A stretch of DNA of 64,000 nucleotides from positions 3,296,001-3,360,000 of the forward strand of contig OZ244170.1 of NCBI GenBank assembly GCA_965216565.1, read 5' to 3'. The stretch comes from Bythopirellula sp. GTDB lineage: Bacteria; Planctomycetota; Planctomycetia; Pirellulales; Lacipirellulaceae. Under the pieces are notes generated by a model. The model worked only from the letters and a program-made list of their open reading frames with translations. It ran no database searches and had not been told where the DNA came from. The translations under genes were made by a program, and so were the position numbers. Positions 13,738 to 50,822 of this stretch are shown in pieces (position 1 is the stretch's first letter; each line of letters opens with the position of its first letter).

Positions 13738-13821
13738 GCAGGTAACAGAAACTCTTGCTTCGACGATAGTCAAGTAAAGTATCCCCGAGTGGATTCGAAC
13801 CACTAACCTTCGGCTTCGGAG
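13738..13821. repeat. Left att direct repeat containing the 3' 42 nt of tRNA-Arg(CCG) (13780-13821)
   Basis: 80/84 identical to 50707-50790; 13772-13821 is identical to 50741-50790 (50 bp); identity ends exactly at the anticodon loop. Confidence 0.95.
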
Positions 13822-13959
13822 AATGGTTAGAGTTTCCCGAAAAATCGCAGCGTTTCTCGGTAACCACGGCATCTTACACCCTTCACCGACCTTTGCAAAC
13901 TCTTTTGGTGCTTGTCAGTTTTTATCGGACTATCACGGTAATCGGATTTTCGACGTGCA

Positions 13960-13981
13960 CCAGAAACGGTAGTTACCGTTT
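13960..13981. promoter_or_regulatory. Palindromic site ccagAAACGGTA-gt-TACCGTTT, candidate integrase arm/accessory binding site
   Basis: 19/21 identical to 50650-50670 at the other end of the element. Confidence 0.55.
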
Positions 13982-14257
13982 TTAGATTTCAGGGACCGCT
14001 ATATCAACTTGAAATTTGATTGTGCTCGATCACTCGCGTAGGATAGTTCTAAGTTACTACTGAGAGAGTGTGGCCTAGTAACGACTATTTAGTGTTGTCC
14101 GGAGAACTCGGAATAACTAATTAAGCGATCTACGTTTGCCAGCAATCTGCTATAAATTCCTGCACAGGAACGCCACTTAAAGAACCATTTATCTATCACC
14201 GAAACGATACAAGTTTTGACGAGATTTACGATCGCTAAGGAGAACAATCTTCGTTGC

Positions 14258-17185
14258 TTAGTCCGCAGAGGGCTCTGTCACAGATGATTCCAGTAACTTG
14301 GTCACTGCCCATTTGCCGTGGCCTAGCTTAGTGAGGTAGCCAGCCTCCCCTAGTTCCCTGAGAACCTTACTGAGGCGATCCTTCTTCCACCCCCAAGATG
14401 AAACCATCTCCCCCGTCCGAAAGTTGCAAAAAGTGTATATTATATTACTTACACTTTTTGCAACTTGCTCCTCGAACCAGGCATACCTCTCCAGGGCTAA
14501 TTGGCTGAGAGGTTTTATGTCATTTACTTCATCAGACACGGTCAGTCCAACGTTCTCATTTGAGAAGACGATCACCGGTATCCCGTTGGGAAGGTTCGAC
14601 CGAGCCCTCCCAATGGCCTGCTGCAAAGCGGCAGTGACTTGAACTCCATGAGCTGCTCGCCAGAGAGAATGCTCATAACCGACTCCGTGGATCACCCTAC
14701 GGCCACCACTTTCGGTTGCTGCGGTCCACCTTTGCTTTTTCCACTCTCCATCCTGCTCCATTGATTCCAGGTCGCCGATTCTTAGTAATTCTGCCTGGAT
14801 TACCTCGGGAGGAACTCTTGGTGTGCCAAGGATCAATAGCAAGCCACAGTCCTTGTGCCAGCTGTTTGAAGCTTTATCATCTCCCTGGCCAAAGTAGGCG
14901 GTTTTAGATATTCGGCCCCGAAGCCCACCCAGAGGACTATTGTCTGCCATTAAATTGTCGATGTGAGGCTTGTGACCGATAACTCCGATCCGCTGGGCAT
15001 TGGGATACTTCAGCATTGTTGCGGCAAGCAAACTCGCCACAGTCGTGGCTTTGGTCCTGCGTTTGATGTCCCGCGGAACTTGAAGCTGCAGATGTCTAGG
15101 CTCTAAGATCCCATCAGGTGTGATATCAACCACCTCTCTACCCGAAAGCAACTCAATTCGAGCAGCACTACCCGTGGCGTCTGAAAAGATTACCGGAGTA
15201 TTTTCAGGTAGCTCTGTTTTGAAGATGCCGATAACGGACTTGTCAAACTGCATGCTGTCGCATTTCTTCTTCGGCTGTTCAACCTTGATAACGCAAAGAT
15301 GAAGCTTTCCGCTGATCAAGCCTAGCATCATTTCCATGGCACTTGCCAGATTGCCAGCGCTCGATGCCTGGTTAAATCTCTCGTCTTCATTCGGTCCCGA
15401 TTGTCGAGAGATTGCGGATCTGCAGGCATTCAGAAGTCGTGCCTGAACTACTGAGCGGAGCTTCACGTACTTCGACGGCTCAAATTCTACAGTTCGTTCC
15501 GCGGCTTCCACTGCAGCGATAAGAGCTTGTGCTGTGTCTGCAAGAATGTCAAACACCTCAACGCAGTTTATGTCAACATTTCCAGGCCGCCGCTTAGTCT
15601 CTTGATATTTCGCTTCTGCCGCAATAGTGAATATTGCTTGTAGGTCAGAAGCGGAAATCGTGAGTTTGTGCCTAAGCAACTCAACTGCGTCTTCGTGCAC
15701 CGCGAGATAATGACGTTGCTTACATACTTCGCCTCGACTGGCCTGAAACATTTTGTGAGTGGCTACTAAATGTGAACCATTCAAAGCGAGATTTCGTTTC
15801 TCGATAAAGTCACACCCTTCCCTGAACTCACAAGAAGGACAAACAGCCGCGCCAGGTGAAAGACCATAGCCCTCTGCTTCATTCACGGTTTGCTTGTTCC
15901 GGCAGACGCCGTAATTCCACTCAGCTTGAACTTCTTGGACACCGTTCTTCGCCATGCCTTCGAAGTATCTCTCCTCTTCCTCCGGAGACACTCTCGCGGG
16001 AAGCTTCGTTGCATCGAGTCCAAAATCTTTGCACAACGCTGCAACGAGCTCATCGCCGTTAGCATGAGTTGGGACGACAGTGAGAGATGTGAGAACGTGC
16101 TCTAGAATCTTGGAGTCCGCATAAGACTTGCCCGATCCGGTTGGCGAGCCATCAAAGTAGATTTCAGGTTTCTTAATAGCCTTAACGCGGGCTAAGAAGA
16201 GATCTTCCCTAAAGATGTCGAGACTTCGCACAGGACCCTTTAAAGGTTCTTGATACGGTTCTGCAGGAGGGGGAGGGGCAACTATTTCAACGTCCAGTGA
16301 CCACTCTGGTTTAGGTCCTGGGGCGTTGAGATATTCACGAACGTCTTTGAATCCCTCGGGAGGGAGAGCCCAGCCGATAGATCGATTGAGTTGCTCTGCT
16401 AATTGCTTTGCAATCGAGATGGCCCCGTCTCGACCAGGCCACCTGTTGGTATCAGCTTTGAAGTCTCTCTCGCCCAACACAACAATTTCCCGATCCTCAT
16501 GAGGTCTCAGCAGTTCTGCCAAATCATCAACACCACCAAGATTAGATGGGCGACCCATGGCACTCAGGCCCATCGTCATACAGGCGGCCGTGTCGCTACC
16601 GCCCTCGACTAGATAGACCGGACCTTGGGAGTCATGCCAATCGTCGGCGTATATTAGCCCTCTCTTGCTACCTGAAATGGCTCTCTTTGTTCCGTCCGTG
16701 CGACGCCGAGTTGAGATCCCTTTGACTCTCCCACTCGCATCACGTTCCGGAAATGTCCATTGATTGACGCCACCAGTAGCCATGATGCCTACGTTTAGTT
16801 TGATCAGCGCCTGAACATCAACTCCAAGTTCTCGTGCTAGCTTCGGAAGTAATATCTCTGCTCTAGCGGTTGCGGAAACGGACATCCGATCAAACTTGTG
16901 ATCGGAAACTTTCTCAAAGTCGGGCTTATAATTGCTTTGTGATCCGGGTGGGTTGCACTGAGTTTTCGATCTAGCGGAGAAGGAGCTGTTGTTTGCTCCG
17001 CTCATAAAGTGCAAATACTGCCCGCCACGGTTGTGACCATTGTTGCTCTTAACCCGTCCGCAATAGACTGCGTTGCCGTCGATGGAGACTGTGCAGTTGT
17101 CGGGCTTGCTACAAATAGGGCAAGGCTTGGATTTTGAAACTGGGTGCCAGTTCTCTTTGCCATGTTTTACATTCAGGCCAAACAA
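14258..17185 (-). CDS. Zn-finger/Toprim primase fused to SF2 helicase-like domain; putative element replication protein
   Basis: CPICSKPDNC..YCGR; Toprim VYLVEGGSD, GERD, KDVREYL; Walker A SPTGSGKS; VHED; SDATG; QAIGRAR; wHTH-like C-terminus. Confidence 0.75.
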   Translation of the reverse strand: MFGLNVKHGKENWHPVSKSKPCPICSKPDNCTVSIDGNAVYCGRVKSNNGHNRGGQYLHFMSGANNSSFSARSKTQCNPPGSQSNYKPDFEKVSDHKFDRMSVSATARAEILLPKLARELGVDVQALIKLNVGIMATGGVNQWTFPERDASGRVKGISTRRRTDGTKRAISGSKRGLIYADDWHDSQGPVYLVEGGSDTAACMTMGLSAMGRPSNLGGVDDLAELLRPHEDREIVVLGERDFKADTNRWPGRDGAISIAKQLAEQLNRSIGWALPPEGFKDVREYLNAPGPKPEWSLDVEIVAPPPPAEPYQEPLKGPVRSLDIFREDLFLARVKAIKKPEIYFDGSPTGSGKSYADSKILEHVLTSLTVVPTHANGDELVAALCKDFGLDATKLPARVSPEEEERYFEGMAKNGVQEVQAEWNYGVCRNKQTVNEAEGYGLSPGAAVCPSCEFREGCDFIEKRNLALNGSHLVATHKMFQASRGEVCKQRHYLAVHEDAVELLRHKLTISASDLQAIFTIAAEAKYQETKRRPGNVDINCVEVFDILADTAQALIAAVEAAERTVEFEPSKYVKLRSVVQARLLNACRSAISRQSGPNEDERFNQASSAGNLASAMEMMLGLISGKLHLCVIKVEQPKKKCDSMQFDKSVIGIFKTELPENTPVIFSDATGSAARIELLSGREVVDITPDGILEPRHLQLQVPRDIKRRTKATTVASLLAATMLKYPNAQRIGVIGHKPHIDNLMADNSPLGGLRGRISKTAYFGQGDDKASNSWHKDCGLLLILGTPRVPPEVIQAELLRIGDLESMEQDGEWKKQRWTAATESGGRRVIHGVGYEHSLWRAAHGVQVTAALQQAIGRARSNLPNGIPVIVFSNENVGLTVSDEVNDIKPLSQLALERYAWFEEQVAKSVSNIIYTFCNFRTGEMVSSWGWKKDRLSKVLRELGEAGYLTKLGHGKWAVTKLLESSVTEPSAD
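14421..14466. repeat. Perfect 17-bp inverted repeat with 12-nt AT-rich loop; candidate replication origin
   Basis: aagttgcaaaaagtgta-tattatattact-tacactttttgcaactt. Confidence 0.6.
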
Positions 17186-17282
17186 GAAAGTGTGCCATCA
17201 CTAAGTATCTGAAGAGGCATGCTACGAGATCGAGAACTGTGATTTGAAAGAGACTGAACTAGACCGAGAGAGACGCCCTATA

Positions 17283-17579
17283 TCAATTGTCTAGGGCAAG
17301 CTCGGCATCGCTGATGTGCTTCTCTCGCTGCCGGTTTGTACGAGAAACACTAGTGGGGACTTCCTCAGGTAGCGTGCGTGCTAAGCAGAACCGCTGGACA
17401 GCCTCAACAGAGGTCATGCGGCGATGCCCGCACTCGAGATACTCAAGTGTCACTCGACTGCCTGACCTAGTAAGCAGCCCGGATTCCGTCCAGCGGAAGA
17501 AGGTGCCGTAAGATGGCCGGTAACCAAGGACGAGTTCGATGGCGGCCGGACCTAAGAGAAGTCTTTCGTTACCAAGCAT
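17283..17579 (-). CDS. DUF1580-like HTH protein (putative excisionase/AlpA-like)
   Basis: RPSYGTFFRW..G...LE....G.RRMTSVEAVQRF; GAGGA RBS before ATG 17579; lies upstream of the primase. Confidence 0.75.
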   Translation of the reverse strand: MLGNERLLLGPAAIELVLGYRPSYGTFFRWTESGLLTRSGSRVTLEYLECGHRRMTSVEAVQRFCLARTLPEEVPTSVSRTNRQREKHISDAELALDN

Positions 17580-17671
17580 GACTGATTCCTCACAAAGGAT
17601 GCGATTGATTAACAATTCACATCTAGAGATATCAGAGCTGCTTGAGAATGGTATCTTCTGGTTGGAATCTG

Positions 17672-17980
17672 CTATGCGTTTTCCAAGTTATTCTTGTCAG
17701 ACTCGTCGAGCAAACCCAACGAGCGCAGCTTATTCAAAACCGTCTTCTCAGAGATATCGAAATCCTCGTAGCCAGGTAACCTTCTGAACGATCCTTTGAT
17801 TTTCCTGGCTAGGTCCAAATTGCTTTTCTTGTTAGGATTATGCTCGTGGAAGAACTGGGTGAGTAGTTTCCGATCTTTTTCACTGCTTAACTTGGCAGTC
17901 TTTTTTCCTCGGTCCGCGTACGCCTTCGATCGTTCTTGTTGAAGAGTGTGAGCTTCAATCGCACCTTCCAGCTTTCCCAT
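17672..17980 (-). CDS. Hypothetical protein, basic and HTH-like C-terminus; possibly the 3' half of a frameshifted gene
   Basis: ORF; this frame stays open upstream to 18145. Confidence 0.45.
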   Translation of the reverse strand: MGKLEGAIEAHTLQQERSKAYADRGKKTAKLSSEKDRKLLTQFFHEHNPNKKSNLDLARKIKGSFRRLPGYEDFDISEKTVLNKLRSLGLLDESDKNNLENA

Positions 17981-18009
17981 GCAATAGGAGACAGAACACG
18001 CCTTCTCGA

Positions 18010-18399
18010 TCAGCCCCTGAGAAACCTGTGAGCGGTACGCTGTGACGAGCCGTTCGACGATGGATAACAGAGTCTGCTCCGCGAGCCCTTCAATCGCCAG
18101 TCGATATCTTGGACTCCATGGATGCTCTCCGCATATTGGATCGCTTCACTAGGCCGGAGAGAATATTGTGGATCATTCGGGGTCGCTGCTTCCTCAAACT
18201 GTTCTAAGACTTCAACGACTTTCTTGAGATTATCTTTCTTGGTCACACGCAAAGTGACTACTTCAGCCTTTTTCTGCAGTCTAGTTATGTGATCTTCAAT
18301 CTCACCGTACGGTTTGTTGATTGAAAGCAGGAGATTCTCTCCATCAAACTCGTACTGAAAAAGAATTTTGCCTTTCGAATAGACTGCAATCGTCGTCAT
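18010..18399 (-). CDS. Hypothetical protein; possibly the 5' half of a frameshifted gene
   Basis: ATG 18399 after AAAGGTGG; same orientation as the element backbone. Confidence 0.45.
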   Translation of the reverse strand: MTTIAVYSKGKILFQYEFDGENLLLSINKPYGEIEDHITRLQKKAEVVTLRVTKKDNLKKVVEVLEQFEEAATPNDPQYSLRPSEAIQYAESIHGVQDIDWRLKGSRSRLCYPSSNGSSQRTAHRFLRG

Positions 18400-19277
18400 A
18401 AGCACGCCACCTTTCTGTCGACCCGACTGGCTGACGTCATGGCGGTGGTACAGGCCACAACGTTCGGTCAGTGAAGTGGGAGCTACCCACAAGTACGAAA
18501 CTACTTTTCGCCGTTTTGGAACAAGCCAGATTATGTCTGGTCGAAAACTGCCCTACAAACTAGTCTAGCTGTCACGGTCCCCGCAATGGTATTCGTTCGG
18601 CACCATCCACAACATGTTTCGTGCAGCTCTGTTTACCGATTCACCTCGCCTTATACCTAGATGCAAGAATGGCATTTGACCTATATATCTCCTCTGTGGC
18701 GACCAACTCGCGGCTGAATGAATACGATAGGCTAGACTGAAGTGAGTAGCCAATTGCATTTATAAGCCTGAGTGGGCGTCACTAGTGCGACTTTGATGTT
18801 TGCAGTCTGTGATTTCGATAGGGGCGACTGAAAGCACGAGGAGTTATCTGTTGCTTACGTTAATTACGTTCCGACCTTTTTAGCTTAGCGTCAAGGTAGT
18901 ATATAAGATTCGCCGTCTATGCGGGATTCACTCCAGCCTATTTAGGATGAGCGGCGTCAGTACGGTGTCACCGCATTTTTTGCAATTCGAGTCAAGAAAA
19001 TCTACGGAAGATCCGTTCGGCTCAAATTGATACCACCCATTGGAGTTGCCACCTATTTCAGCAACGATTCCAGCGTCGAAGGTGATCACCGCTGCGCGCA
19101 GGGCTGACTTGACGTTGGCATAGAGTATAACTCTCCTAATTGTGCTGTTTCTGGAGCAGGTCGGCGGATTTGTGCCGAACGCATCTCCTGGACATAGCAA
19201 ACGGACCTTTGAGTTCATCTAACTAGAATCAGATGGATCCAGCCCCCCTCTAGTCACCGCACAACCAACGAATAAAG

Positions 19278-20711
19278 ATGCGACAAAGACTTCATTGTCG
19301 AATTCGTCTAATATCTCTAAGGAGTTTTTTCGTAGCCGTGGTTGTCTGGCAATATCTCTTGACCAAAGTGGAAGCCCAGGAGGAGAGCATAGTGCAGTGT
19401 GAAAGACAGTTGACTACTGGCGATTGCAATCACATGCTCACGAACGTCGGAGTCTGGTCCCACGATAGTGCCTGGATCTATTACGATGTGAGAAGCGAGG
19501 TTGATGGCTCAAGCTTCGATGGGCTACTTATCGAACGAATCCATGTCCAAAGTGGAAAGGTCGAGACAGTTTACCAGGCAAGCCACGGAGCGTACTGTGG
19601 TGTGGTGACTGCCAATCCTGTTACTAGCCAAATTGTATTTATTCACGGTCCCGAGTTTCCCACCAAGGAATGGAGTTACTCCGCCTGGCATCGTCGTGGT
19701 GTGACACTCCGACCTGAAGTAGAAACAACACCCACAAATCTGGATGCCCGAAATTTTGTGAGCCCCTACACTCCCGGTGCATTGCGCGGAGGTTCTCACG
19801 TCCATACTTTTAGCGGAGACGGGCTTTGGATAAGTTTCACTTATGAAGACCACGTACTGGCAACATCAGACAGCCCACGAAGCGGACGGAACCAAAGAAA
19901 TATAGGCGTCGCTGCACCCTACGGGCCCGTATTGGTCCCGAAGTCGCATCCTAGAAACCATAGCGGCTCGGCATTCAGCGTGCTAGTAACAAAGACAACC
20001 GACGCACCGCGTTCGGGGAGCGACGATATCACTCGAGCCTATAGTGATGCTTGGATTGGAAAAGATGGATATCTTGCAGTGAATGGATCACGACAGAAAC
20101 GAGCTATAGCATTCATCGGCAATGTATTGGGGGCAGATGGTATTGAAGTTCCCGAATTATTCGTAGTAGATATCCCACAGGATGTCACTCGATCTGGCAA
20201 ACATGCACTCTGCGGTACAAAACAGACAAGGCCCTATCCACCACATGGAACGGTGCAGCGCCGTTTGACTCATACAACAGAACGAAAATATCCGGGACTT
20301 GGAGCTGTTCGTCATTGGCCGCGCAGTAGTCCAGACGGTAGCAAAATAGCTTTCTTAATGCGCGACGATGAAGGCAAAACGCAGCTTTGGACTATCTCGC
20401 CGCATGGTAAAGATTTGAATCAGCTCACTCACAACGTTCTTCCGATGGAATCAGCATTCACGTGGCGGCCAGATGGCTTAGCGATTGCGTGCGTTGCGAA
20501 TCAGCAAATCTGCGAGATCCTTGTGGAGACTGGAGAAACCGTTCCGCTCATGGCCTCACCCGAACAAGGATCTTCACTTCGGCCTGAGGCAGTGGTTTAC
20601 TCACCTGATGGCACATTGATTGCCTATATGAAAGAGGTGAAATCGTTAGATGGAGCGAAGACCATCAACCATATCTTCCTGACGCGTTCTCAGTTCGCCT
20701 TAAACCGCTAA
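19278..20711 (+). CDS. DUF3748/YidR-family TolB-like beta-propeller protein
   Basis: HMLTNVGVWSHDSAWIYYDVR, PGALRGGSHVHTFSGDG..SFTYEDH, RHWPRSSPDG. Confidence 0.8.
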   Translation: MRQRLHCRIRLISLRSFFVAVVVWQYLLTKVEAQEESIVQCERQLTTGDCNHMLTNVGVWSHDSAWIYYDVRSEVDGSSFDGLLIERIHVQSGKVETVYQASHGAYCGVVTANPVTSQIVFIHGPEFPTKEWSYSAWHRRGVTLRPEVETTPTNLDARNFVSPYTPGALRGGSHVHTFSGDGLWISFTYEDHVLATSDSPRSGRNQRNIGVAAPYGPVLVPKSHPRNHSGSAFSVLVTKTTDAPRSGSDDITRAYSDAWIGKDGYLAVNGSRQKRAIAFIGNVLGADGIEVPELFVVDIPQDVTRSGKHALCGTKQTRPYPPHGTVQRRLTHTTERKYPGLGAVRHWPRSSPDGSKIAFLMRDDEGKTQLWTISPHGKDLNQLTHNVLPMESAFTWRPDGLAIACVANQQICEILVETGETVPLMASPEQGSSLRPEAVVYSPDGTLIAYMKEVKSLDGAKTINHIFLTRSQFALNR

Positions 20712-20909
20712 AACGTCAAATCTGGCGAAGCGGATCTATCTAACATTTGCAAACACTTCATCACTCTATTGTGGGCTGGCGATTTGTACGCAAGATTCTT
20801 CTCAACGGACACTGGGGATTTCGCTACATAAATCCCTTGCAGATCTCAGGTTAAGCTGATTCTTGAACTGACTACCCAGGCAAACTTTCCAGAGATATTG
20901 GTTAAATCA

Positions 20910-20959
20910 TTGACAAGCCGACCAACAGGTATTCAAATGGTGTTCTGCTGGAATACCAG
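20910..20959 (+). promoter_or_regulatory. Putative promoter (-35 TTGACA at 20910) with GntR/FadR-type operators (caGGTATTCaa; CTGGAATACCAG)
   Basis: Near-palindrome CTGGAATACCAG at 20948-20959 and a related site at 20926-20937, upstream of the GntR gene. Confidence 0.5.
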
Positions 20960-21018
20960 TCGCGTTTTAAAGTTTCTGCTCCTTTTTCACCTACTTTTAA
21001 ACCTGGAAATCGTAGTCC

Positions 21019-21762: not shown

Positions 21763-21913
21763 GAGTGTGCTGGCTGTATTTTTGAATTGAGTACTCGTCT
21801 GTTACATCTAAATATCGCGACCTCTTCACGAACGTTTGAAACTTCAGTTGATTTTCCGACAAAAGGTTTGAGTTCGCAGGTACTACTAAAATCTATTTTA
21901 AGGGAGGTGGATA

Positions 21914-23095: not shown

Positions 23096-23138
23096 CGCAG
23101 ATGCATTCACCTAATTTCTATTTGGAGGGATAAGACTA

Positions 23139-23996: not shown

Positions 23997-24018
23997 GAAA
24001 GTATCACCCTGGTGACGG

Positions 24019-41704: not shown

Positions 41705-43699
41705 GTGATGAGAAGCATTCTAGGTCTCATGGCGATCGCAATGAGCTTTTACACGGACACCTCGATTAAAGCCTTCGAACGTATCAAATACAATCATCCA
41801 GGACTCACGGTCGATTTGGGAGTTGGCCTTTGGGCTTGGCCACTTCCCATGGACTGGGACAGCGATGGCGACCTGGACCTGATTGTCTCATGCCCCGACA
41901 AACCGTATCACGGTAGCTATTTCTTTGAAAACACGGGAGATGATTCAAGACTTCCCGTATTCCAAGCCGGTGTTCGAGTAAGCGGTGGAGTCAAGAATGC
42001 ACAGGTCTCCTATGTGAACGGTCAGCCGCGTGTACTGAAAGGACAAAACCCAGACAGAGGACGCTGCGTTGAATTCGTAAACTTTCTGGGTGAAGGTTTC
42101 AACGAATCACACGAGTTAGATTATCCGGCCGTAAAAGTTGGCGAAGGACGCGTACGGGCGAATCAATGGAAATATGTAGATTTCGACGATGATGGTGCGC
42201 TGGACTTGATCCATGGCGCCGGATTCTGGGGCGACTATGGTTGGGATAATGCCTTCGATAGTGAAGGAGAATGGCAACGCGGTCCGCTTCACGGCTATGT
42301 GTACGTCTTGCGGAACAAAGGATCGAATAAACAACCCGACTACGAAACTGCATATCGGCTGCAGGCGGCGGGCAAAGACGTGGATGTCTACGGAATGCCT
42401 TCGCCCAACTTTGCCGATTTTGATGGCGATGGAGATCTTGATCTTCTATGTGGCGAGTTTCTGGATGGTTTTACGTACTTCGAAAACGTCGGCACAAGAT
42501 CGAAACCGGAATACTCGGCTGGCGTCTATCTAACGAATGCAGGCAAAAAGGTTGCCATGCATGTGCAGATGATTACACCCGTAGCTATTGACTGGGATCG
42601 TGACGGTGACATCGATCTGGTTTGCGGTGATGAGGATGGACGAGTCGCATTTGTGGAAAACACCGGAGCGATTGAAGATGGCACTCCGCTCTTCGAACAA
42701 CCTGTCTATTTCCAACAAGTCGCCGAGGACGTCAAATTCGGGGCGCTAGTAACCCCGTTTGGGGTCGATTGGGATAACGACGGAGATGAAGATCTGATTT
42801 GCGGGAATACCTCTGGCAATATTGGATTCATCGAGAATCTAGATGGAGGCTATCCACCCAAATGGGCGGCACCGGAACTATTGGTTAGCGAGGGTGAAAC
42901 GATTCACATTCAGGCGGGGCCTACTGGTTCGATCCAGGGTCCTTGCGAGGCCAAGTGGGGGTACACGGTTCTAAACGTCGCAGATTGGGACCACGACGGG
43001 CTTCACGATTTAGTCGTCAACAGCATTTGGGGCAAAGTCATTTGGTACAAGAACACAGGTACCAAACACGAACCGCAACTTGCAGCCGCTCGACCTGTCC
43101 AAGTCGAATGGGCAGATGAACCCATGAAACCTACCTGGAATTGGTGGAATCCAGACTCGCATGAATTAGTCACTCAATGGCGCACTACACCTTGCGTGAT
43201 CGATTGGGACAAAGATGGGCTCAACGATTTGGTGATGTTGGACCACGAAGGATACCTGGCACTCTTTAAGCGAGTTGAACGCGACAATCAACTCATGCTT
43301 TTGCCCGGCAAGCGTATATTTCACGGAGGTACCTTCGATAACAAGCACAAGATCGTTGAAACTAGTATTGAAGATAAAGAACGTGCACTGCTCCGCTTAA
43401 CTAGAAATCAGGCCGGTGCCTCGGGAAGACGCAAGCTTTGCTTCTCTGACTGGACTGGTGATGGCAACTTAGATTTACTCGTCAATAGCGAGAACACGAA
43501 CCTACTTGAGAATGTCGGCACAAGAGACGGCAAGATTCTGTTCAAAGACAGAGGCAAGCTGGGCACACGTACCTTGGCTGGGCATAGTACATGTCCGACG
43601 ACTGTTGATTGGAATCGGGATGGAAAACCGGACTTAGTATGTGGTGCCGAAGATGGACGTCTTTACTATTTGCAGAACCCAAACTCGGAAGAGAAGTAG
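41705..43699 (+). CDS. Secreted FG-GAP/VCBS-repeat protein
   Basis: Many D[WF]DxDGDxDL repeats; YNHPGLTVDLGVGLWAWP; signal peptide. Confidence 0.85.
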   Translation: MMRSILGLMAIAMSFYTDTSIKAFERIKYNHPGLTVDLGVGLWAWPLPMDWDSDGDLDLIVSCPDKPYHGSYFFENTGDDSRLPVFQAGVRVSGGVKNAQVSYVNGQPRVLKGQNPDRGRCVEFVNFLGEGFNESHELDYPAVKVGEGRVRANQWKYVDFDDDGALDLIHGAGFWGDYGWDNAFDSEGEWQRGPLHGYVYVLRNKGSNKQPDYETAYRLQAAGKDVDVYGMPSPNFADFDGDGDLDLLCGEFLDGFTYFENVGTRSKPEYSAGVYLTNAGKKVAMHVQMITPVAIDWDRDGDIDLVCGDEDGRVAFVENTGAIEDGTPLFEQPVYFQQVAEDVKFGALVTPFGVDWDNDGDEDLICGNTSGNIGFIENLDGGYPPKWAAPELLVSEGETIHIQAGPTGSIQGPCEAKWGYTVLNVADWDHDGLHDLVVNSIWGKVIWYKNTGTKHEPQLAAARPVQVEWADEPMKPTWNWWNPDSHELVTQWRTTPCVIDWDKDGLNDLVMLDHEGYLALFKRVERDNQLMLLPGKRIFHGGTFDNKHKIVETSIEDKERALLRLTRNQAGASGRRKLCFSDWTGDGNLDLLVNSENTNLLENVGTRDGKILFKDRGKLGTRTLAGHSTCPTTVDWNRDGKPDLVCGAEDGRLYYLQNPNSEEK

Positions 43700-43758
43700 T
43701 TCTCAGTAAGCTACTCGTGCCCAGCAGAATTCACGCTTAGAAAGAGTAATTAGTCGCT

Positions 43759-45144
43759 ATGAGAATCTGTGTTGTTCAAACCCTCCTTATCGCTGCCTTA
43801 TTTGGTGACTTAGCTAGCGCAGACGAAAATATCACGGCGTCGACGAGTGCGACGATTGCGCAGCTACAAAAGAAGACTGGAAAAGAAGGATCGACAAACA
43901 CGTTGCTGGGTTATGAGAATCCCGGAGATGGCGGCGGCGGACTTTTCTATTGGTCCTCTAATGCACCGAAGCCAATTGATGGGGGGACAATCGTTCGTTG
44001 CAACAATGGCGGGGCGTGGGTTCGGATTTTCAACGGACCGGTACATGCTGCTTGGTTTGGCGTATTGCCAACAGCGGAAAGGGACACTCTAACTCAAGAA
44101 GAGGTTGACCGTACTACCCATCGGTTAGAGCAGGCACTCCATGCAGCCGCTGGTGACACCTTGCGATTCGGGCAAGGCACATTCTATCTGTCTAAAACGC
44201 TCATCATTCCACCTAATACGCTGATAACAGGAGCAGGCCCACAAGATATTTGGACGCGCAGCCCAGGTGGCACGACAATACGACCATATGGGCCAGGAAA
44301 AGCCCAATTATGGCAAGACACGGGTGTGAAAGAGAACGATATGCTCCGGCCTCTATTCGTATGTGGCGGTAGCAATGTCCGATTTCGAGAAATAGGACTT
44401 CTTACTCAAGCCGACGAAAAGTCGGGCTCCACGGCATGGGATGTTGGCATTTTGCTACCAGCAACAAAACGCTGCTCGATCGACCACGTCAGCATCAGAG
44501 GTTATTGGCAAGTAGCCGCCTGTCTGCTCGATGCGACTTGGTCGGACAGGCACAAACGTATGATTGCTCTGCACAAGGGGCGAATAACGCCATCGTCGAT
44601 GAACGAATGTACAATCCTCCGTTGTTTTCTCTCAGGCAAATGGGGAGTTATGATTCGCGGAGCAGACAAGAGAGTCTATGACCCACGAGACTTTCGAGAT
44701 TACGACAAAACAGGAATGTCTGAACGTTGGGACGAGTGGATTTGGTCCTATGGTGGCACCTCCGATATTGAAATCATCAGTTGTCGAATCGAAGGAAAAG
44801 CTCCCAAAAGTCTACAGCACCTAGATGGAGGTGCATTCTACAGCGATGCCCCAATGGTAAATGGTGCGGCTGCTGGACAGGGGCACCGTATTATTGGTTG
44901 CAATTTACGTACGAACACCCGTTACATGGTTAAGCTCGGCTCCTCTAATCGAGATACTTTTATCGGCTGCTATTTTGAGGGCGGCTGGTGCGACCGACAA
45001 CCGAACGGCAAGTGCCAAGAGGCCCCCTCGTTTATGACAAACGACGCAGAACATACTGGCCAGACGCGCTTTATTGACTGTCGTTTCACAACTTGCGATA
45101 TCAAGTCGGAGTGGAACTATAAGAAGACACACACTTGGCCGTGA
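43759..45144 (+). CDS. Secreted right-handed beta-helix (pectin-lyase-fold, tailspike-like) protein
   Basis: Signal peptide; LGYENPGDGGGGLFYW..DGGTIV..GAWVR; AAWFG; GTFYLS; Cys/Ile-ladder repeats. Confidence 0.6.
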   Translation: MRICVVQTLLIAALFGDLASADENITASTSATIAQLQKKTGKEGSTNTLLGYENPGDGGGGLFYWSSNAPKPIDGGTIVRCNNGGAWVRIFNGPVHAAWFGVLPTAERDTLTQEEVDRTTHRLEQALHAAAGDTLRFGQGTFYLSKTLIIPPNTLITGAGPQDIWTRSPGGTTIRPYGPGKAQLWQDTGVKENDMLRPLFVCGGSNVRFREIGLLTQADEKSGSTAWDVGILLPATKRCSIDHVSIRGYWQVAACLLDATWSDRHKRMIALHKGRITPSSMNECTILRCFLSGKWGVMIRGADKRVYDPRDFRDYDKTGMSERWDEWIWSYGGTSDIEIISCRIEGKAPKSLQHLDGGAFYSDAPMVNGAAAGQGHRIIGCNLRTNTRYMVKLGSSNRDTFIGCYFEGGWCDRQPNGKCQEAPSFMTNDAEHTGQTRFIDCRFTTCDIKSEWNYKKTHTWP

Positions 45145-45263
45145 CCAGAACAAGTAGCTTTGTCTGGCACAAGGGCAACTCAAGATAGGTCAGGGATTAG
45201 TCTTTGCTTCACTCCGCGCCATATCGCCATGCGATCCAATGCTGAAATCAGGAGAGTGCAATC

Positions 45264-48200
45264 GTGACATCAAAGAATATGGTATTGTTGGCCTTATTTG
45301 GAATTGCTCTCGACCTACATTTTACTAGCTCCGCAGTTGCAGACCTGCTACCGCCTAATACTCTCCGGATAAGCGAAGGGTTTAAGAACCCTCTTGGCTT
45401 CTATGACAAGGAACCAAGCTTTTCTTGGCGAGTTCCCGCCGACTCACAAGTGAAAAGCCAAAGCGCTTACCGTATCGTCGTCGCAAGCGACCCCGCACTT
45501 TTGCCAGAAAAGGCTGATTTGTGGGACACGGGTAAAACAGACTCAAACCAATCCGTCTGGGTGCGCTACTCGGGGCACTCGCTTGACTCTCGGAACTTAG
45601 TCTACTGGCAGGTGAAGTATTGGGATGAGAAGGATCGCCAGTCCTCCTGGAGTGAACAAGCGCATTTCGAGTTGGGCTTGCTCAATAACAGCGATTGGAA
45701 AGGCAAGTGGATACAAATGCAGGGCCCTAAGGCCTTTCCTCCTCCGCAAGTATGGTTAGAAGACCCTCAGCAAAGAGATCGCGAGGGTATAAATATAACG
45801 ATCAACCGTGCTGAATACGGAATCCACACCGCAAATGGCGAGACGGTTGATATTTCCGACTCAATTCGGCAGATGGTACATCAAGACAAATACCTTCTTC
45901 AAGTGTCTGATCGGTTAGCCAAGCAGAGCACTTTTTCTGCTGGCGAAGCGAAACTGTTGATTGATTACGATCTCAATCTCAAGCATGTTCGTAAACTGCT
46001 TACCCAAGGGACCACGTTCAATTTACTATCGCGAGAAGAGTATGTGACCCTTGTTCCGGAATATTTCCGAAAGCAGTTCGAGCTGACTGGCCCCATAAAG
46101 AAGGCAAGGTTGTACATTACCGCTCGCGGACTCTATCAGGTCCACATCAACGGCGAGCGTATTGGTGAAGATCATATGACGCCTGGTTGGACAACGTATA
46201 ACAGTTGGATTGAATCGCTCACTTACGATGTAACCGAACAACTTCGCAAAGGGAATAACGTCATTGCTGCCATTCTGAGTGAGGGTTGGTATGCCGGTCG
46301 CATTGGCAGTCCAGGTAAATATACCGAAACCCATCCAGAGCTCCTCTGTCAACTGGAAGTTACGTTTTCAAATGGGAAGAAAAAGGTCATTGTGACTGAT
46401 CGGAATTGGAAGGCCACCAACCAAGGACCAATTCGTGTCTCCAGCATCTTCGATGGCGAGGTCTACGATGCAAGAAAAGAGATGGCTGGATGGAAGTCTA
46501 CCGGATTCGATGATTCTCAGTGGAGCCCAGTCACTGCATCTGACCTTGATCCGAACGTTTCAATTGCTCCTAAACAACAGCCACCCGTTCGCGTTACGGA
46601 GAAGATAAATGCTTTACACGTAACCGAACCTGAGCCCGGCAAGTTCGTCTTTGATTTTGGCCAAAACGTGGTAGGCAAACCAAGCATTAAGATCCCGGTG
46701 AAGAAGGGCGAGACGATCAGAATCAGATTCGCTGAAATGCTCAATCCGGGTGGGACTCTATATACTGAGAACTATCGTAGTGCACGATCCAGCGACTATT
46801 ACGTAGCAGCAAGTGACAAGTCGATTACCTGGGAACCTACGTTCACCTTTCATGGTTTTCGCTATGTCGAGCTGTCCGGATTCTCAACTGATGTCGGGCC
46901 TCAATCTAATTGGGTAACGACTCATGTGTTGCATACGGACTTTGAAAGAACCGGAAGGTTCACCAGTTCACATGAGAAGCTCAATAGACTGCAAGAGAAT
47001 ATTATCTGGGGCCAAAGGGGAAATTTCCTAGATATACCGACCGATTGCCCCCAGCGGGACGAACGCCAAGGCTGGACAGGTGATGCACAAATCTTCTGTC
47101 CCACGTCGTTATTCAACTACGACACCCATGCATTTTGGAAAAGCTGGTTGCGTAGTATGCGAGCAAATCAACGCGAAGATGGCATTATCCCTTGGATTGT
47201 ACCTTCCAGTAGAGAGTTCAAGAAATTTGGTAGCGCAGCCTGGGGAGACGCAGCGGTTGTCGTGCCGTGGGAAGTTTATCTTCGAACAGGTGATGTTTCA
47301 GTACTTGAAGAAAACTATCGGATGATGCGGCGCTGGGTTGCAGCATACGAGCCTGATGCGAAAAATCACATAGTTAATCGCGATGGATTTGGAGATTGGC
47401 TGCAACCGTACTCAAAGGGGGATCTTCAAAAGAAACGCGGAGTATTAGTTGGTGAAACTGCTTTGGAATTGATCGCCACAGCGTACTACGGGCGAGGGAC
47501 AGAAATCATGCAGCAGGTCGCGTCAGTTCTAGGGCGTGACGAGGATGCCAATTTTTACAAAGAAGAAAGGTCAAAGATCCGCGATGCCTTTTCCCGTGAG
47601 TTTTTCGACCAGCAGGGGCGACTTACTACCAAATTTGAAACGCAAACCGGTTATCTACTGGCTCTCGCATTCGATTTGCTCAAGCCTAGTCTTAAGGCAG
47701 GAGCGATTCGAAACTTATTGCGTGAGGTCGACGAGGGTGATGGACACCTCCGTACAGGTTTCGTTGGCACACCCTTGCTCGCACCAGTTCTCGACGAGAA
47801 TGGCCACTCTGCAAGGGCTTACAGCATCCTTTTCAAGGAGTCATACCCTTCCTGGTTCTTTTCGATAAATCAGGGTGCAACGACTATGTGGGAACGCTGG
47901 AATAGTTTCAGTCATGCAGATGGCTTTGGCGATGCCAAGATGAACTCTTTCAATCATTACGCCTACGGAGCTATCGGCCAATGGATGTATGAGCGAGTTG
48001 CCGGCTTAGCGCCAGACTCAAAGCACCCTGGCTATAAGCATTTCTTCATTCAGCCGATACCCGGCGGGCCCTTGACCAAAGCCCGAGCAGAGCTTGAAAC
48101 GCCCTATGGCAAGGCGGTGAGCGGTTGGCAACGAGTCGAAGATTCGATCGTGATCTACGCCACTGTTCCAACCAATTCCACAGCAACACTTATTGTACCG

Positions 48201-48341
48201 CAAATAAAAGAAGGTGAACCCAAGCTCAGTCTGGATGGTAAGCCTTGCTCGTTGGATCGGCACGATAACCAATATAGATATGAGATCGCTCCAGGTAAGT
48301 ACGAGTTCATCCTGAAAACGGGATCGTTACCACTCGAATAG
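45264..48341 (+). CDS. GH78 alpha-L-rhamnosidase
   Basis: ARLYITARGLY, DFGQN, FTFHGFRYVE, PTDCPQRDERQGWTGD, GATTMWERW, MNSFNHYAYG. Confidence 0.93.
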   Translation: MTSKNMVLLALFGIALDLHFTSSAVADLLPPNTLRISEGFKNPLGFYDKEPSFSWRVPADSQVKSQSAYRIVVASDPALLPEKADLWDTGKTDSNQSVWVRYSGHSLDSRNLVYWQVKYWDEKDRQSSWSEQAHFELGLLNNSDWKGKWIQMQGPKAFPPPQVWLEDPQQRDREGINITINRAEYGIHTANGETVDISDSIRQMVHQDKYLLQVSDRLAKQSTFSAGEAKLLIDYDLNLKHVRKLLTQGTTFNLLSREEYVTLVPEYFRKQFELTGPIKKARLYITARGLYQVHINGERIGEDHMTPGWTTYNSWIESLTYDVTEQLRKGNNVIAAILSEGWYAGRIGSPGKYTETHPELLCQLEVTFSNGKKKVIVTDRNWKATNQGPIRVSSIFDGEVYDARKEMAGWKSTGFDDSQWSPVTASDLDPNVSIAPKQQPPVRVTEKINALHVTEPEPGKFVFDFGQNVVGKPSIKIPVKKGETIRIRFAEMLNPGGTLYTENYRSARSSDYYVAASDKSITWEPTFTFHGFRYVELSGFSTDVGPQSNWVTTHVLHTDFERTGRFTSSHEKLNRLQENIIWGQRGNFLDIPTDCPQRDERQGWTGDAQIFCPTSLFNYDTHAFWKSWLRSMRANQREDGIIPWIVPSSREFKKFGSAAWGDAAVVVPWEVYLRTGDVSVLEENYRMMRRWVAAYEPDAKNHIVNRDGFGDWLQPYSKGDLQKKRGVLVGETALELIATAYYGRGTEIMQQVASVLGRDEDANFYKEERSKIRDAFSREFFDQQGRLTTKFETQTGYLLALAFDLLKPSLKAGAIRNLLREVDEGDGHLRTGFVGTPLLAPVLDENGHSARAYSILFKESYPSWFFSINQGATTMWERWNSFSHADGFGDAKMNSFNHYAYGAIGQWMYERVAGLAPDSKHPGYKHFFIQPIPGGPLTKARAELETPYGKAVSGWQRVEDSIVIYATVPTNSTATLIVPQIKEGEPKLSLDGKPCSLDRHDNQYRYEIAPGKYEFILKTGSLPLE

Positions 48342-49370
48342 AAGATTCTGGATGACTCAATGAGTTTGAGGTTCCAGTGCATGGAAAACCTCTCTCAAAA
48401 GTGTTCGTGCAGCCCCGTACTTTTCAGTTAGTGTGTCGGTCAATTAGCATTCTGTTCGATTGGAGCAAAACGTTGTACTTGTATGCTATTGCCAGTCGCA
48501 TTTTATCCCATGAAATTTAAACTGTACTACCATCAGCTGGGTTGGGCGGTAAAGCAGTCTCGAGCAGTTATTGGCGTAGGAGAATTTCTTCTACGCTGAT
48601 ATCCAAATCGTTGATTCCCTCCCTAACGTCACTCTAGAGACGAAGGCCTGCCAATCGAGGGAGTAATCTTGCTGTCAATTCGATGACAAGCAAACTGCTT
48701 GAATAAGCACTAGTCGGCTCAGGCATGCTGATGGCACTAACCTTTTCTAACCTATGCCAGCTCATTGCACCTCGCCTCAGTGATTTCGACCGAAGCTAGG
48801 AATAGCAGTACCTGTACCTGCTTCGGTTGAGCACTCCGAAAGCATTTAGAATGGAGCTACAACTCTTGGGATGCCCCCACACGCGTGACTAGCGACATAC
48901 CTTACCTAGTTGCGAGATACACCACCCCTGCCATGAATGGGAGCTAAGAGTTTATAGATCTAACGCGGGTGGTCACCTTGTCCAGGTGTATAACTAGGGC
49001 GTGTGTCTGCCGAACAATACAAAGAAGAAAGCAAGAGATACCGACTTTCTACGAAAGTTACAGCTACTTACCCAGAGTGGCACTGATTTGGTCAGCGGTG
49101 AGAGAGAGCATATACTACCCCTTAATCCAGAAGCCCCCGGGAGGTGTGGTAAAAACTTCTGAGTAACCGGCAATCTGGAACGAGAAAGTTGTCTTTGTCC
49201 CATGACAGTTTTCTCGATACATATCATCAAAGAATCTGTATCAGGCCCATTACACTTTACAAATGACTCCGAGACCCTACTGAAACAAGTCTTGTTCAGT
49301 TCGGATTACGATCGAACCTAGCCCAGAGACTGGTCACTGCCCGATGACAAGTATTCACTCCTGAGAGACT

Positions 49371-49416
49371 AAAAAGAGCTGAGGAACGAACAACAATCAA
49401 GTGCCGACCTCAGCTC
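49371..49416 (-). terminator. Possible terminator downstream of the integrase
   Basis: gagctgagg/cctcagctc 9-bp stem followed by a T run on the minus strand; the 23-nt loop is long. Confidence 0.3.
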
Positions 49417-49445
49417 GCTGGAATCTCGAGCTAGACCACTTTGGA

Positions 49446-50624
49446 TTACCCAATCTGTTGTGCCACTTTGATCCCTTTGGCCAAATCCCGCTCCGCATAG
49501 ACCTGAGTGACGTCGGCCGTGCTGTGCCCTAGCACGATCTGAGCAGCCTCCAGGCCGAATTTACGCCGTATCTCGGTCGCAGCCGAGTGTCGGAGTCGAT
49601 TGGGACTCCATTGCTCAACACCTGCTTTCTTGCAGGCATAATGGATAGCACGACGGTAGCTACCCGTGGTGTAGTGATCTTGGGGCTTCTTCTTTGGTTT
49701 CTTCTTGCGGTTAGTTCCTGGACGGTTGCCACAACTTAGCGGGGTCTGACGCGCAGCGTGTTGGGCTGCTCTCCGCTTCGCCTCGCTGTCACGCCGCTGA
49801 AAGCAGTACTCTTCTGCTGCTCTTACCAGATATTTGAGCAAGATATCCTGGGATCTTGGTCCAAAACACACTACTCGATCTCTACCATGGTGCTGAGTCT
49901 TATGGGTAGCTGGCCGATACAACCAGACTTCCTCAGCACGCTCGATGTCGCAAGGCCGTAGCTGGCAGACCTCGGCAGGTCGCATACCCGTGAGACGTTG
50001 CAGCCGCACCATGTCGGCAACGGTCGATGAAAGGCTTTCCAATGTGTCATCCACGACGCAGTCCTCAACGGGCATGACTGGGGCATTATCTCGAGCCTCA
50101 GACCGCCCATGCCGCAAGCCAGACACAGCCCTCAAGCCTTCATAGACTGCGGGGGGCACCAACTCTTCGGCCACCCCCCACTTAAACATTCGCTTGATGC
50201 GGCCAATTTGGGCATTCACATAACTCCGAGAGTTGTCGGCCTCGATCATACGCTGCCGCACAGCTTGGAGAGCAAGAGGTCCGAATTCTGAGGCTGGCGT
50301 AGTCTTGTACCAGTCCCTGAGGAACCGGAGGGCCAATTTGATATTGGGCGCTTCGCCCGTACATTTTCCGTCCTTGCTGTAGTACTTCTTAGCGTACTGC
50401 CAATAGCGGGCACAGAGCTCGATGACCGTGAGCTCATCGGTCGATCCGAGGAGCGGATTGCGACCGCTTTGCAGCCACTCACCGATAAGGCGGTCGTAGT
50501 CCAGTTTACTGGCCCGCGTGCCATGGGGGCCCAGGTAATAGTCCCTGCCATTGAGGGTGACGACAGCTTGGCCGCTAGCTCGATGCTTGCGGTACTTGGG
50601 AAGATGGTTCTTAGAGTATGGCAT
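49446..50624 (-). CDS. Tyrosine recombinase / phage-type integrase
   Basis: TGMRPAE (R), HKT (K), PNRLRH, LGH, TQVY (Y); N-terminal arm-binding-like YRKHRASGQAVVTLNGRDYYLG. Confidence 0.95.
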   Translation of the reverse strand: MPYSKNHLPKYRKHRASGQAVVTLNGRDYYLGPHGTRASKLDYDRLIGEWLQSGRNPLLGSTDELTVIELCARYWQYAKKYYSKDGKCTGEAPNIKLALRFLRDWYKTTPASEFGPLALQAVRQRMIEADNSRSYVNAQIGRIKRMFKWGVAEELVPPAVYEGLRAVSGLRHGRSEARDNAPVMPVEDCVVDDTLESLSSTVADMVRLQRLTGMRPAEVCQLRPCDIERAEEVWLYRPATHKTQHHGRDRVVCFGPRSQDILLKYLVRAAEEYCFQRRDSEAKRRAAQHAARQTPLSCGNRPGTNRKKKPKKKPQDHYTTGSYRRAIHYACKKAGVEQWSPNRLRHSAATEIRRKFGLEAAQIVLGHSTADVTQVYAERDLAKGIKVAQQIG

Positions 50625-50649
50625 AGCGCAGGTCTCCTAGTTTCTCAGC

Positions 50650-50670
50650 CCAGAAACGGTATGTACCGTT
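50650..50670. promoter_or_regulatory. Palindromic site ccagaAACGGTA-tg-TACCGTT upstream of the integrase
   Basis: Matches 13960-13980; about 25 bp upstream of the int start codon. Confidence 0.55.
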
Positions 50671-50706
50671 CTTGAGCCTTAGGAAACGCCGCGCTGCCGA
50701 TCATCG

Positions 50707-50790
50707 GCAGGTAACAGAAACTCTTGCTTCGGCAGTAGTTAAGTAAAGTATCCCCGAGTGGATTCGAACCACTAACCTTCGGCTTCGGAG
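50707..50790. repeat. Right att direct repeat
   Basis: 80/84 identical to 13738-13821. Confidence 0.95.
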
Positions 50791-50822
50791 GCCGACACTC
50801 TATCCAGTTGAGCTACGGGGAC
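50749..50822 (-). tRNA. tRNA-Arg(CCG), CCA not encoded
   Basis: GTCCCCGTAGCTCAACTGGATAGAGTGTCGGCCTCCGAAGCCGAAGGTTAGTGGTTCGAATCCACTCGGGGATA folds as a cloverleaf. Confidence 0.97.

Follow-up and report, generated by a model that had tools for sequence, protein, structure and literature searches.

A 36,969-bp mobile-element island is integrated in a tRNA-Arg(CCG) gene of Bythopirellula sp. It lies in the window analyzed here, a stretch of 64,000 nt that corresponds to positions 3,296,001-3,360,000 of a single-contig 5.21-Mb genome (the host genome, G000) and that contains gene families typical of Planctomycetota (DUF1559, DUF1580 and PEP-CTERM, by Pfam). The island is a genuine integrated element. 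It is also probably a cargo-carrying, self-replicating and non-conjugative one, of the tycheposon kind. Tycheposons, as described for Prochlorococcus and other marine bacteria (Hackl et al., 10.1101/2020.12.28.424599), are 10-20 kb long with about 10 kb of cargo. They have an inward-directed tyrosine integrase at a tRNA gene, partial-tRNA repeats, and an optional replication module at the opposite end; their cargo serves niche adaptation or defence, and their integrases are partitioned by tRNA (10.1101/2020.12.28.424599). For the Bythopirellula island, the reading as a tycheposon-like, self-replicating cargo shuttle is likely because its relatives share the backbone and differ in cargo. The features of the element, in order along the window, are as follows (ORF, open reading frame; att, attachment site).

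13738-13821: distal att copy, made up of the displaced 3′ part of the tRNA (13779-13821) and 41 nt of tRNA trailer; exact core 13772-13821.
13960-13983: palindrome AAACGGTAnnTACCGTTT, about 140 bp inside the distal att; a candidate arm-type or regulator binding site.
14258-17185, minus strand: Rep-type primase-helicase, 975 aa.
17283-17615 (likely start 17579), minus strand: DUF1580 protein, PF07618 at 4e-10.
17672-17980, minus strand: 102-aa ORF, no family match.
18010-18492, minus strand: 160-aa ORF, no family above cut-off, weak PrgX_C_TPR match (0.0014).
18919-19072: backbone segment that borders the cargo slot, with 73.5% identity to DNA immediately downstream of the integrase of a paralogous tRNA-Met element in the same genome.
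19278-48341, plus strand: cargo block, 18 ORFs, 29,064 bp.
48342-49445: 1.1-kb gap between cargo and integrase, free of ORFs of at least 80 aa; contains the dispersed repeat 48579-48847.
49446-50624, minus strand: tyrosine integrase, 392 aa, PF00589 at 1.8e-15 and phrog_1 at 2.5e-30.
50650-50673: second palindrome copy, 26-49 bp upstream of the integrase start.
50707-50790: proximal att copy; exact core 50741-50790.
50748-50822, minus strand: intact tRNA-Arg(CCG), by ARAGORN, with which Rfam agrees.

The boundaries are set by one long direct repeat, 84 nt in length and 95% identical, which a repeat search placed at 13738-13821 and 50707-50790. The start-to-start spacing of 36,969 bp is the element unit. 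The exact core is the 50 nt nearest the anticodon (13772-13821 = 50741-50790), and all four mismatches fall within the 34 nt downstream of the tRNA 3′ end. By manual count the repeat spans tRNA positions 33-75, the anticodon being positions 35-37. That is, the two copies cease to match at the first base of the anticodon loop. A 22-nt core sequence, searched with up to 3 mismatches, occurs at only two sites in the window, compared with 0.00 expected from 100 shuffles; no third, inner copy is present in the window at that threshold. The Rfam scan found nothing besides the tRNA.

On manual reading, the trailers of both att copies are alignable, with an indel, for about 25 nt beyond the repeat. 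This trailer is not conserved in the five comparable sister genomes; therefore, the attP of the element carries a host-like tRNA trailer, which points to a probable long association with the tRNA locus of this lineage. The two arms of the element also share the motif ACGGTAnnTACCGT, of which the 5.2-Mb genome has only two copies, at 13966 and 50656, i.e., one per arm. The copy at 50656 sits between the integrase start and the proximal att. In a sister element of genome G008 the palindrome is found at both corresponding places, the distal copy being half decayed.

Base composition agrees with these limits. The host genome has a GC content of 0.536, with a standard deviation of 0.020 and a 5th percentile of 0.501 among 5-kb windows. 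Each 5-kb window of the element, backbone and cargo alike, lies at 0.48-0.504, and the tetranucleotide distance of the element is at the 75th-98th percentile of the genome. Both measures revert to genome-typical values outside both att sites. The whole interval is compositionally foreign.

The strand order separates backbone from cargo. The integrase, DUF1580 and 975-aa protein genes are all on the minus strand, and the integrase is transcribed from the tRNA end into the element (50624 -> 49446). A doubtful 96-aa minus-strand ORF is also present on the backbone side of the cargo. The 18 cargo ORFs are all on the plus strand. Pfam was run on 24 ORFs of at least 80 aa, and PHROGs on the six backbone ORFs and 14 further element ORFs. 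These runs returned no relaxase, type IV secretion system (T4SS), terminase, portal, capsid or tail family in the element ORFs, and no terS, capsid-size, packaging-redirection or packaging-interference family. A sequence-only reading of this DNA had described an element of about 37 kb integrated in tRNA-Arg, with att repeats that break at the anticodon loop, a minus-strand backbone split by about 29 kb of plus-strand cargo, and no relaxase, T4SS, terminase or capsid gene. Each part of that description is borne out by the results above.

The integrase belongs to a family that is widespread in the genus. Homologs (E <= 1e-40) occur in 20 of 27 genus genomes, with up to nine matches per genome. 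At 23 of the 30 loci scanned, a tRNA of the same orientation precedes the integrase start by about 100-250 bp. Fourteen different anticodons are represented, and the targets are Arg-CCG, Arg-TCG, Ala (TGC, CGC, GGC), Pro (TGG, CGG), Ile, Asn, His, Val, Met and Lys. The other seven loci have no tRNA within flanks of about 1.5 kb, and several of them are at contig ends. On a FastTree phylogeny of the 30 integrases, the target tRNA is clustered, with 17 changes versus a shuffled mean of 21.0 and none of 200 shuffles as low. The window integrase is sister to one at tRNA-Ala(TGC); therefore, tRNA targets do switch. The host genome also has a same-family integrase, 50% identical, that adjoins tRNA-Met (G000:C1:1512296-1513774), and a 181-residue integrase fragment at C1:1371064.

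Two sister elements repeat the layout of the window element. In G008:C14, a tRNA-Arg(TCG) gene is followed by an integrase 69% identical to that of the window and, 67 kb on, by DUF1580 and Rep genes (Rep 47% identical). A 44-nt att repeat, which also starts at tRNA position 33, delimits an element of 72,329 bp. Its cargo includes seven sulfatases, glycoside hydrolases (GH) of families GH2, GH3 (two), GH10 and GH78 (several), two BNR_4 proteins, ECF sigma/FecR, DUF1559 and a PEP-CTERM protein. In G005:C1 the same order occupies 22,399 bp, and the cargo is a type I restriction-modification system with SRAP and an S1/P1 nuclease. The gene behind DUF1580 in this element encodes a 700-aa protein that matches phage primase/polymerase families and differs from the window Rep. 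A compact relative, G225:C77, has tRNA-Arg(ACG), integrase, DUF1580, a Zn_Ribbon_Prim primase and an AAA_25 helicase. To summarize, the order integrase, cargo, DUF1580, Rep or primase-like gene, att recurs in three elements at two different tRNAs. Across these relatives the backbone order is constant, the replication gene appears to be exchangeable, and cargo appears in one slot directly behind the integrase.

DUF1580 keeps company with this integrase. A census of PF07618 over G000, G005, G008, G017 and 14 control genomes found 10 genes in G000, G005 and G008, none in G017, and none in the control genomes. For nine of the ten, an integrase of this family lies upstream and points the same way. 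The tenth, at G000:C1:1469735, has no obvious integrase partner. The distance to the integrase is 0.5-1.7 kb for six genes and 17.5 kb (G005:C1), 32 kb (this element) and 67 kb (G008:C14) for the other three, in which cargo lies between integrase and DUF1580. The backbone is read as interrupted by cargo because it is in the compact relatives that DUF1580 lies 0.5-1.7 kb behind the integrase.

All 12 aligned DUF1580 homologs match PF07618, and three of the 12 touch HTH_17 below its cut-off. A profile search of the PDB gave no match. When the structure model was compared by VIA-align, the top rows were excisionases, namely that of GIsul2 (Z 6.8, root-mean-square deviation 1.7 Å over 56/57 residues), RdfS and Pukovnik Xis (both Z 5.6) and lambda Xis (Z 4.4), all below Z 8, a range in which likeness may be a matter of common arrangement. 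MerR-type DNA-binding domains are among the rows, as is an E. coli packaging-redirection protein (6hn7, Z 5.8) of a phage-inducible chromosomal island (PICI). DUF1580 is best read as an excision-directionality or regulatory factor with a predicted winged helix of the excisionase/MerR type, because of its putative excisionase-like fold and its fixed position behind the integrase. DUF1580 appeared in no paper of the library searched.

The 975-aa Rep protein (14258-17185) matches no Pfam family and no NCBIfam family, and phmmer found no match to it in the PDB. A search of 5.8 billion proteins yielded 20 relatives only. Its architecture is nevertheless legible, as follows: a Zn ribbon, a TOPRIM primase, an XPD/DinG-like helicase of superfamily 2 (SF2) with a four-cysteine insert, and a C-terminal winged helix. 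A profile built from 14 sequences aligns with the catalytic core of E. coli DnaG (E 1.7e-4), including the TOPRIM EGxxD motif. In the AlphaFold2 model (mean predicted local distance difference test score, pLDDT, 80.4), the C-terminal two-thirds match DinG (1.5e-13), XPD (1.6e-11) and CasDinG by Foldseek, and the N-terminus matches T7 gp4 (1.3e-7) and Aquifex DnaG (2.6e-6). The last 80 or so residues form a winged helix in the model. The conserved motifs are the Zn ribbon, TOPRIM Glu194, GE(R/D)D, Walker A GSGKS, motif II H/D-E and motif VI QAxGRxR. In XPD/DinG helicases an iron-sulfur cluster is held between motifs I and II. The Rep cysteines are located between the same two motifs: Cys449, Cys452 and Cys458 are invariant, and Cys428, about 20 residues upstream, is present in nine of 14 aligned sequences. 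An iron-sulfur cluster is predicted by this analogy. To our knowledge, no primase-helicase with a helicase of the XPD/DinG-like class has been described.

In a scan of one genome per species, all 16 relatives of Rep found were in Planctomycetota, including a Ca. Kuenenia metagenome-assembled genome (MAG). A tRNA is present within the scanned flanks (up to 10 kb) at 10 of 14 such loci, and tblastn places the integrase family at three of 16 and DUF1580 at four of 16. In an order-level genome set a Rep match occurs in 41 of 301 genomes, and many of these comprise the primase half or the helicase half only. The host genome has no second Rep homolog. Neither protein nor profile searches found relatives in IMG/VR; phage records held none, and a plasmid collection of 72,556 records gave no BLAST match. 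A Rep homolog on a Planctomycetota MAG contig is flanked on both sides by full tRNA-Ser(CGA) genes, which are 13 kb apart.

Among proteins studied by experiment, the nearest to Rep are the CyRepA plasmid replication proteins, to which it appears to be distantly related. CyRepA1 and CyRepA2, Reps of cyanobacterial plasmids, combine DUF3854 (TOPRIM-like) with a DExD helicase and support autonomous replication (PMC10079941). The likeness to the window Rep is the joining of a TOPRIM-type N-domain and a DExD-type helicase in one protein. In the window Rep, a Zn ribbon and a DnaG-like TOPRIM stand in place of DUF3854, the four-cysteine insert and the C-terminal winged helix are additional, and the gene is integrated in the chromosome. 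A bridge is provided by one member of the Rep family, P0011, which has DUF3854 ahead of the same helicase and matches 29 plasmid records, mostly annotated 'CyRepA1 family'. It aligns with a CyRepA1-family Rep of Planktothrix from DUF3854 through helicase motifs I/Ia (E 5e-14). The window Rep matches the same Planktothrix protein weakly in pairwise comparison (E 5e-5, 86 residues, TOPRIM only). Because CyRepA-type Reps support autonomous replication and align with the Rep family, it is a reasonable inference, and not a finding, that the element has its own replicon. The sequence-only reading had stated as much outright; what is borne out is that the element encodes a replication-type protein.

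The cargo encodes a predicted glycan/sugar-utilisation block. Its proteins are a DUF3748/PD40 protein, a GntR-FCD regulator, two LamG proteins with PEP-CTERM, two NHL proteins of about 1000 aa, two DUF1559/N-methyl proteins, each followed by a small ORF, an SSF symporter, a DHDPS-family aldolase, two FG-GAP proteins, a fucose-isomerase-like protein, a ribulokinase (NF003154, 646 bits versus a cut-off of 428), a beta-helix protein and a five-domain GH78 alpha-L-rhamnosidase. The beta-helix protein (ORF 43759-45144) resembles phage tailspike/exopolysaccharide (EPS)-depolymerase families (E 1.3e-6), which is the sole phage-family match outside the backbone; in this cargo setting it reads as a putative glycan depolymerase. 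GH78 is the single clear carbohydrate-active enzyme (CAZyme) family, and no SusC/D is present in the cargo. The capture of a polysaccharide-utilisation locus (PUL), proposed earlier, thus stands in part: a glycan/sugar-utilisation block is predicted, but the term PUL is loose for a locus with GH78 alone as clear CAZyme and no SusC/D.

It had also been claimed that the cargo depends on an exosortase and a prepilin peptidase of the host. This agrees with the gene content. The element has neither enzyme for its PEP-CTERM and N-methyl/DUF1559 proteins, and the host encodes both elsewhere, with one exosortase at C1:4,778,479 and prepilin peptidases at C1:828,559 and 2,910,207. Among relatives, the fucose-isomerase-like gene has homologs of 66-73% in 38 of 61 family genomes, and the isomerase-kinase pair is kept only in G041 among those examined.

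The tRNA-Arg(CCG) gene is used by other islands as well. Copies of its 3′ half lie 8-75 kb from the full gene in six of 26 sister genomes (G004, G015, G011, G020, G018 and G008). Three such islands were inspected, with Cas9/Cas1, GmrSD/HEPN and regulatory/stress-gene contents, and none resembles the window element. In G004 there is an 8.7-kb island at tRNA-Arg(CCG) without an integrase, and in G005 a 38-aa integrase remnant is all that is found at this tRNA. By these copies, the gene is an island hot spot.

We suggest that the element works as follows. The integrase would recombine the two 50-nt cores, with the crossover in or 3′ of the anticodon loop, releasing a circle and restoring the tRNA. 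DUF1580, as an excisionase-type winged helix, and the two element-specific palindromes flanking the core would set direction or regulation. Rep would bind an origin via its C-terminal winged helix, unwind and prime, so that the circle is copied. Cargo would occupy the slot directly behind the integrase and be exchanged between elements. Vesicles, transformation or borrowed capsids are all possible routes by which the circle may enter a new cell.

The likeness to tycheposons extends to most parts of this scheme. The PF00589 integrase lies beside tRNA-Arg(CCG) and heads away from it, the 84-nt repeats are partial-tRNA repeats, and DUF1580 and Rep (17615 -> 14258) are at the far end. A small primase/helicase replication module is joined by a putatively Xis-like gene. 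The cargo is of the adaptation or defence type, with a glycan/sugar block here and sulfatase/GH genes or type I restriction-modification in the sisters. Integrases group by target tRNA, and the tRNA is an island hot spot. Among the differences, the host phylum, Planctomycetota, is not mentioned in the tycheposon preprint, and glycan-degradation cargo of 29-67 kb stands against about 10 kb of nutrient-uptake genes (10.1101/2020.12.28.424599). In the library searched, nothing was found on such elements in Planctomycetes, and the one paper that names both tycheposons and planctomycetes deals, by title and abstract, with chitin use in picocyanobacteria; the supplements of the preprint may list further taxa. 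The closest known kind is thus best read, by analogy, as the tycheposon and not the phage satellite, the island being a planctomycete counterpart with an unusual Rep and a very large glycan cargo.

Several observations weigh against a mobile, self-replicating element of this kind. The window element, at 37 kb, and its sister, at 72 kb, exceed the 10-20 kb given for tycheposons (10.1101/2020.12.28.424599), and the hallmark genes (integrase, Xis-like, primase/helicase) are likened to theirs by function and layout, not by profile homology. The DUF1580 fold matches are middling; with a model of pLDDT 80, Foldseek gave nothing at E <= 0.001, the best value being 0.9. The link between Rep and CyRepA appears weak and partly transitive, and a search for an origin or iterons in four non-coding stretches of the element found only short, chance-level repeats. 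The read evidence consists of assembled contigs of public runs, which are unable to show excision. In a run labelled with this organism, a single 36,999-bp contig spans the element from core to core, with the breakpoints that a 50-nt repeat would give in k-mer assembly. Its depth is 37.8 versus 31.1 for the 119-kb left-flank contig, a 1.2-fold difference that is at most a hint and that lower GC may explain. A relative about 97-99% identical, present in the algae metagenome run X5, lacks 2,163 bp (16776-18938) and with them the N-terminus of Rep, DUF1580 and both small ORFs. Depth is about 10 for this deleted form and 2-4 for a minor intact form. The X5 relative also has at least 5 kb of unlike DNA between 19034 and 19081, i.e., at the backbone/cargo junction. 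Because of this deletion and this unlike DNA, the backbone is taken to be undergoing loss in at least one lineage, and the cargo junction appears plastic. The whole cargo cluster was not found in the regions examined in four relatives. Finally, 35 window proteins were compared by tblastn with 18 stretches that surround tRNA-Arg(CCG) in 14 sister genomes. HIT/Trm112 of the right flank proved conserved, and left-flank synteny was kept in 0 of 18, so that there is no clean empty site among species-level relatives. The comparison of this locus in sister genomes, called for by the sequence-only reading, thus brought out the hot spot (six of 26) but no clean empty site.

The X5 deletion also bears on an alternative in which the island arrived as described and is now a fixed relic, having lost excision and replication, with cargo that has become ordinary chromosomal DNA and is shedding its backbone. 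The excess of the deleted form over the intact one in X5, the integrase-free island of G004 and the 38-aa remnant of G005 all fit decay of this sort, and no circle was seen, in assembled contigs that are unable to show excision. In the host genome, however, the integrase and Rep genes are uninterrupted at 392 and 975 aa, the 50-nt cores are identical, both palindromes are intact, and the element contig is, if anything, deeper than its flank. A relic is unlikely, though it deserves serious consideration. The uniform composition of the element and the lack of a second integrase or of an inner att copy within 3 mismatches speak against another history, namely that integrase plus cargo and DUF1580 plus Rep are two successive insertions in the same tRNA with the inner att lost. 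Such a tandem composite would suit a hot spot that holds unrelated contents in six of 26 sister genomes, and tandem accretion is described for tycheposons (10.1101/2020.12.28.424599). Against it, three elements at two different tRNAs share the order integrase, cargo, DUF1580, Rep, att, and the segment at the cargo edge, 18919-19072, matches DNA directly after a paralogous integrase. We hold it to be quite improbable.

Two further alternatives would have the element moved by a helper, as the sequence-only reading had proposed in calling it a satellite or an integrative mobilisable element (IME). Positive evidence for that proposal was not obtained: the element has no packaging, capsid-redirecting or relaxase gene, and elements of 22, 37 and 72 kb share one backbone, which poorly fits a single capsid. 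A phage satellite of the PICI or P4 type would excise and replicate on helper infection and be packaged in helper capsids. The set of integrase, Xis-like protein and primase-helicase without virion genes is what such a satellite would have, and the 6hn7 row of DUF1580 recalls PICI packaging redirection. Nonetheless, no terS, capsid-size or packaging-interference family is found in the element ORFs, a search of the host genome for PF05065 (capsid) and PF03237 (terminase) found neither, IMG/VR and phage records yielded no relatives of Rep, and the size of 36,969 bp contrasts with about 10-20 kb for PICIs (10.1101/2020.12.28.424599). This makes a satellite improbable. An IME, moved by a conjugative system encoded elsewhere, is very improbable. 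It would account for an element without transfer genes of its own, and the phylum has one conjugative and three mobilisable plasmids; conjugation nevertheless appears rare in the phylum (10.1101/2024.01.22.576637), none of the element ORFs matches a relaxase family, and no oriT was identified, although no search aimed at one was made.

Other known systems share single aspects with the tycheposon-like island. It fails as a prophage on capsid, portal, terminase and tail genes, and as an integrative conjugative element (ICE) or IME on relaxase and T4SS gene content. P4 and PICIs offer the same logic of one priming, unwinding and origin-binding protein on an integrase-bearing tRNA island. In P4 this is the alpha protein, which uses a superfamily 3 (SF3) helicase together with a primase of the archaeo-eukaryotic type. 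The Rep of the window differs in having the SF2 XPD/DinG-like helicase with TOPRIM, and the element is much larger and has no sid/psu/delta-like or terS genes. In Bacteroidota, PULs ride on ICEs with conjugation machinery and SusC/D systems. A whole glycan-utilisation locus on a site-specific integrative element is common to both cases, but the window element has neither conjugation machinery nor SusC/D. As for plasmids of the phylum itself, the planctomycete plasmidome study describes RPA-family Reps, and makes no mention of primases or helicases (10.1101/2024.01.22.576637).

A bolder proposal is tentative, and we regard it as rather doubtful. It is that the island belongs to a family of tRNA-integrating, self-replicating elements of Planctomycetota's own, marked by an integrase that acts at the anticodon loop, by DUF1580 in the role of excision factor and by a new Rep of TOPRIM, iron-sulfur XPD/DinG-like and winged-helix domains. 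Such elements would carry whole polysaccharide-degradation loci of 29-67 kb, and defence systems too, from one species to another while encoding neither conjugation nor virion genes themselves. The glycan niche range of algae-associated planctomycetes would then be traded on plasmid-like islands.

Among the major degraders of sulfated and of rhamnose-rich algal glycans are the planctomycetes, and how their large CAZyme and sulfatase repertoires are acquired is poorly understood. An integrase/Xis-like/Rep backbone, loaded with glycan loci of 29-67 kb in two species and with a restriction system in another, would offer a tangible means of gene flow in a phylum in which conjugative plasmids look rare (10.1101/2024.01.22.576637). 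DUF1580, a planctomycete-only family, would gain a testable role, and Rep could be a starting point for replicating vectors in a phylum that has few genetic tools. The general kind, a tRNA island with integrase, primase-helicase and cargo, is already known; for this phylum it is likely new.

Additional observations concern the surroundings of the element and of the tRNA-Arg(CCG) gene in sister genomes. The left flank consists of a Tad pilus locus and a DUF4886 gene, and a DNA search with it gave no usable match in 40 relatives. Within the gap between cargo and integrase, the segment 48579-48847 (about 270 nt) is a small dispersed repeat: it has 78% identity to G000:C1:1062695-1062963 and, over 115 nt, 84% identity to C1:2684178-2684290. 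At G011:C2:703000-722000, a 12-kb island at tRNA-Arg(CCG) has a different, 339-aa integrase adjoining the Cas9 and Cas1 genes. In G015:C96:35000-54999, the 3′ side of the tRNA bears an 8.4-kb island that encodes GmrSD, a RiboL-PSP HEPN protein and an integrase. Next to the HIT gene, 6.5 kb from the tRNA, is a copy of its 5′ half, and the interval includes a patatin-like protein. Copies of the 5′ half are also present in G005 and G012. Because of these copies in the three genomes, some elements seem to duplicate the 5′ side of tRNA-Arg(CCG). In G008:C14, antisense copies of the 3′ half at 89420-89464 and 210253-210295 lie 196 kb and 75 kb from the gene at 285330, and one of them is just behind the integrase of the tRNA-Arg(TCG) element. 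These antisense copies may reflect a past rearrangement between related elements.

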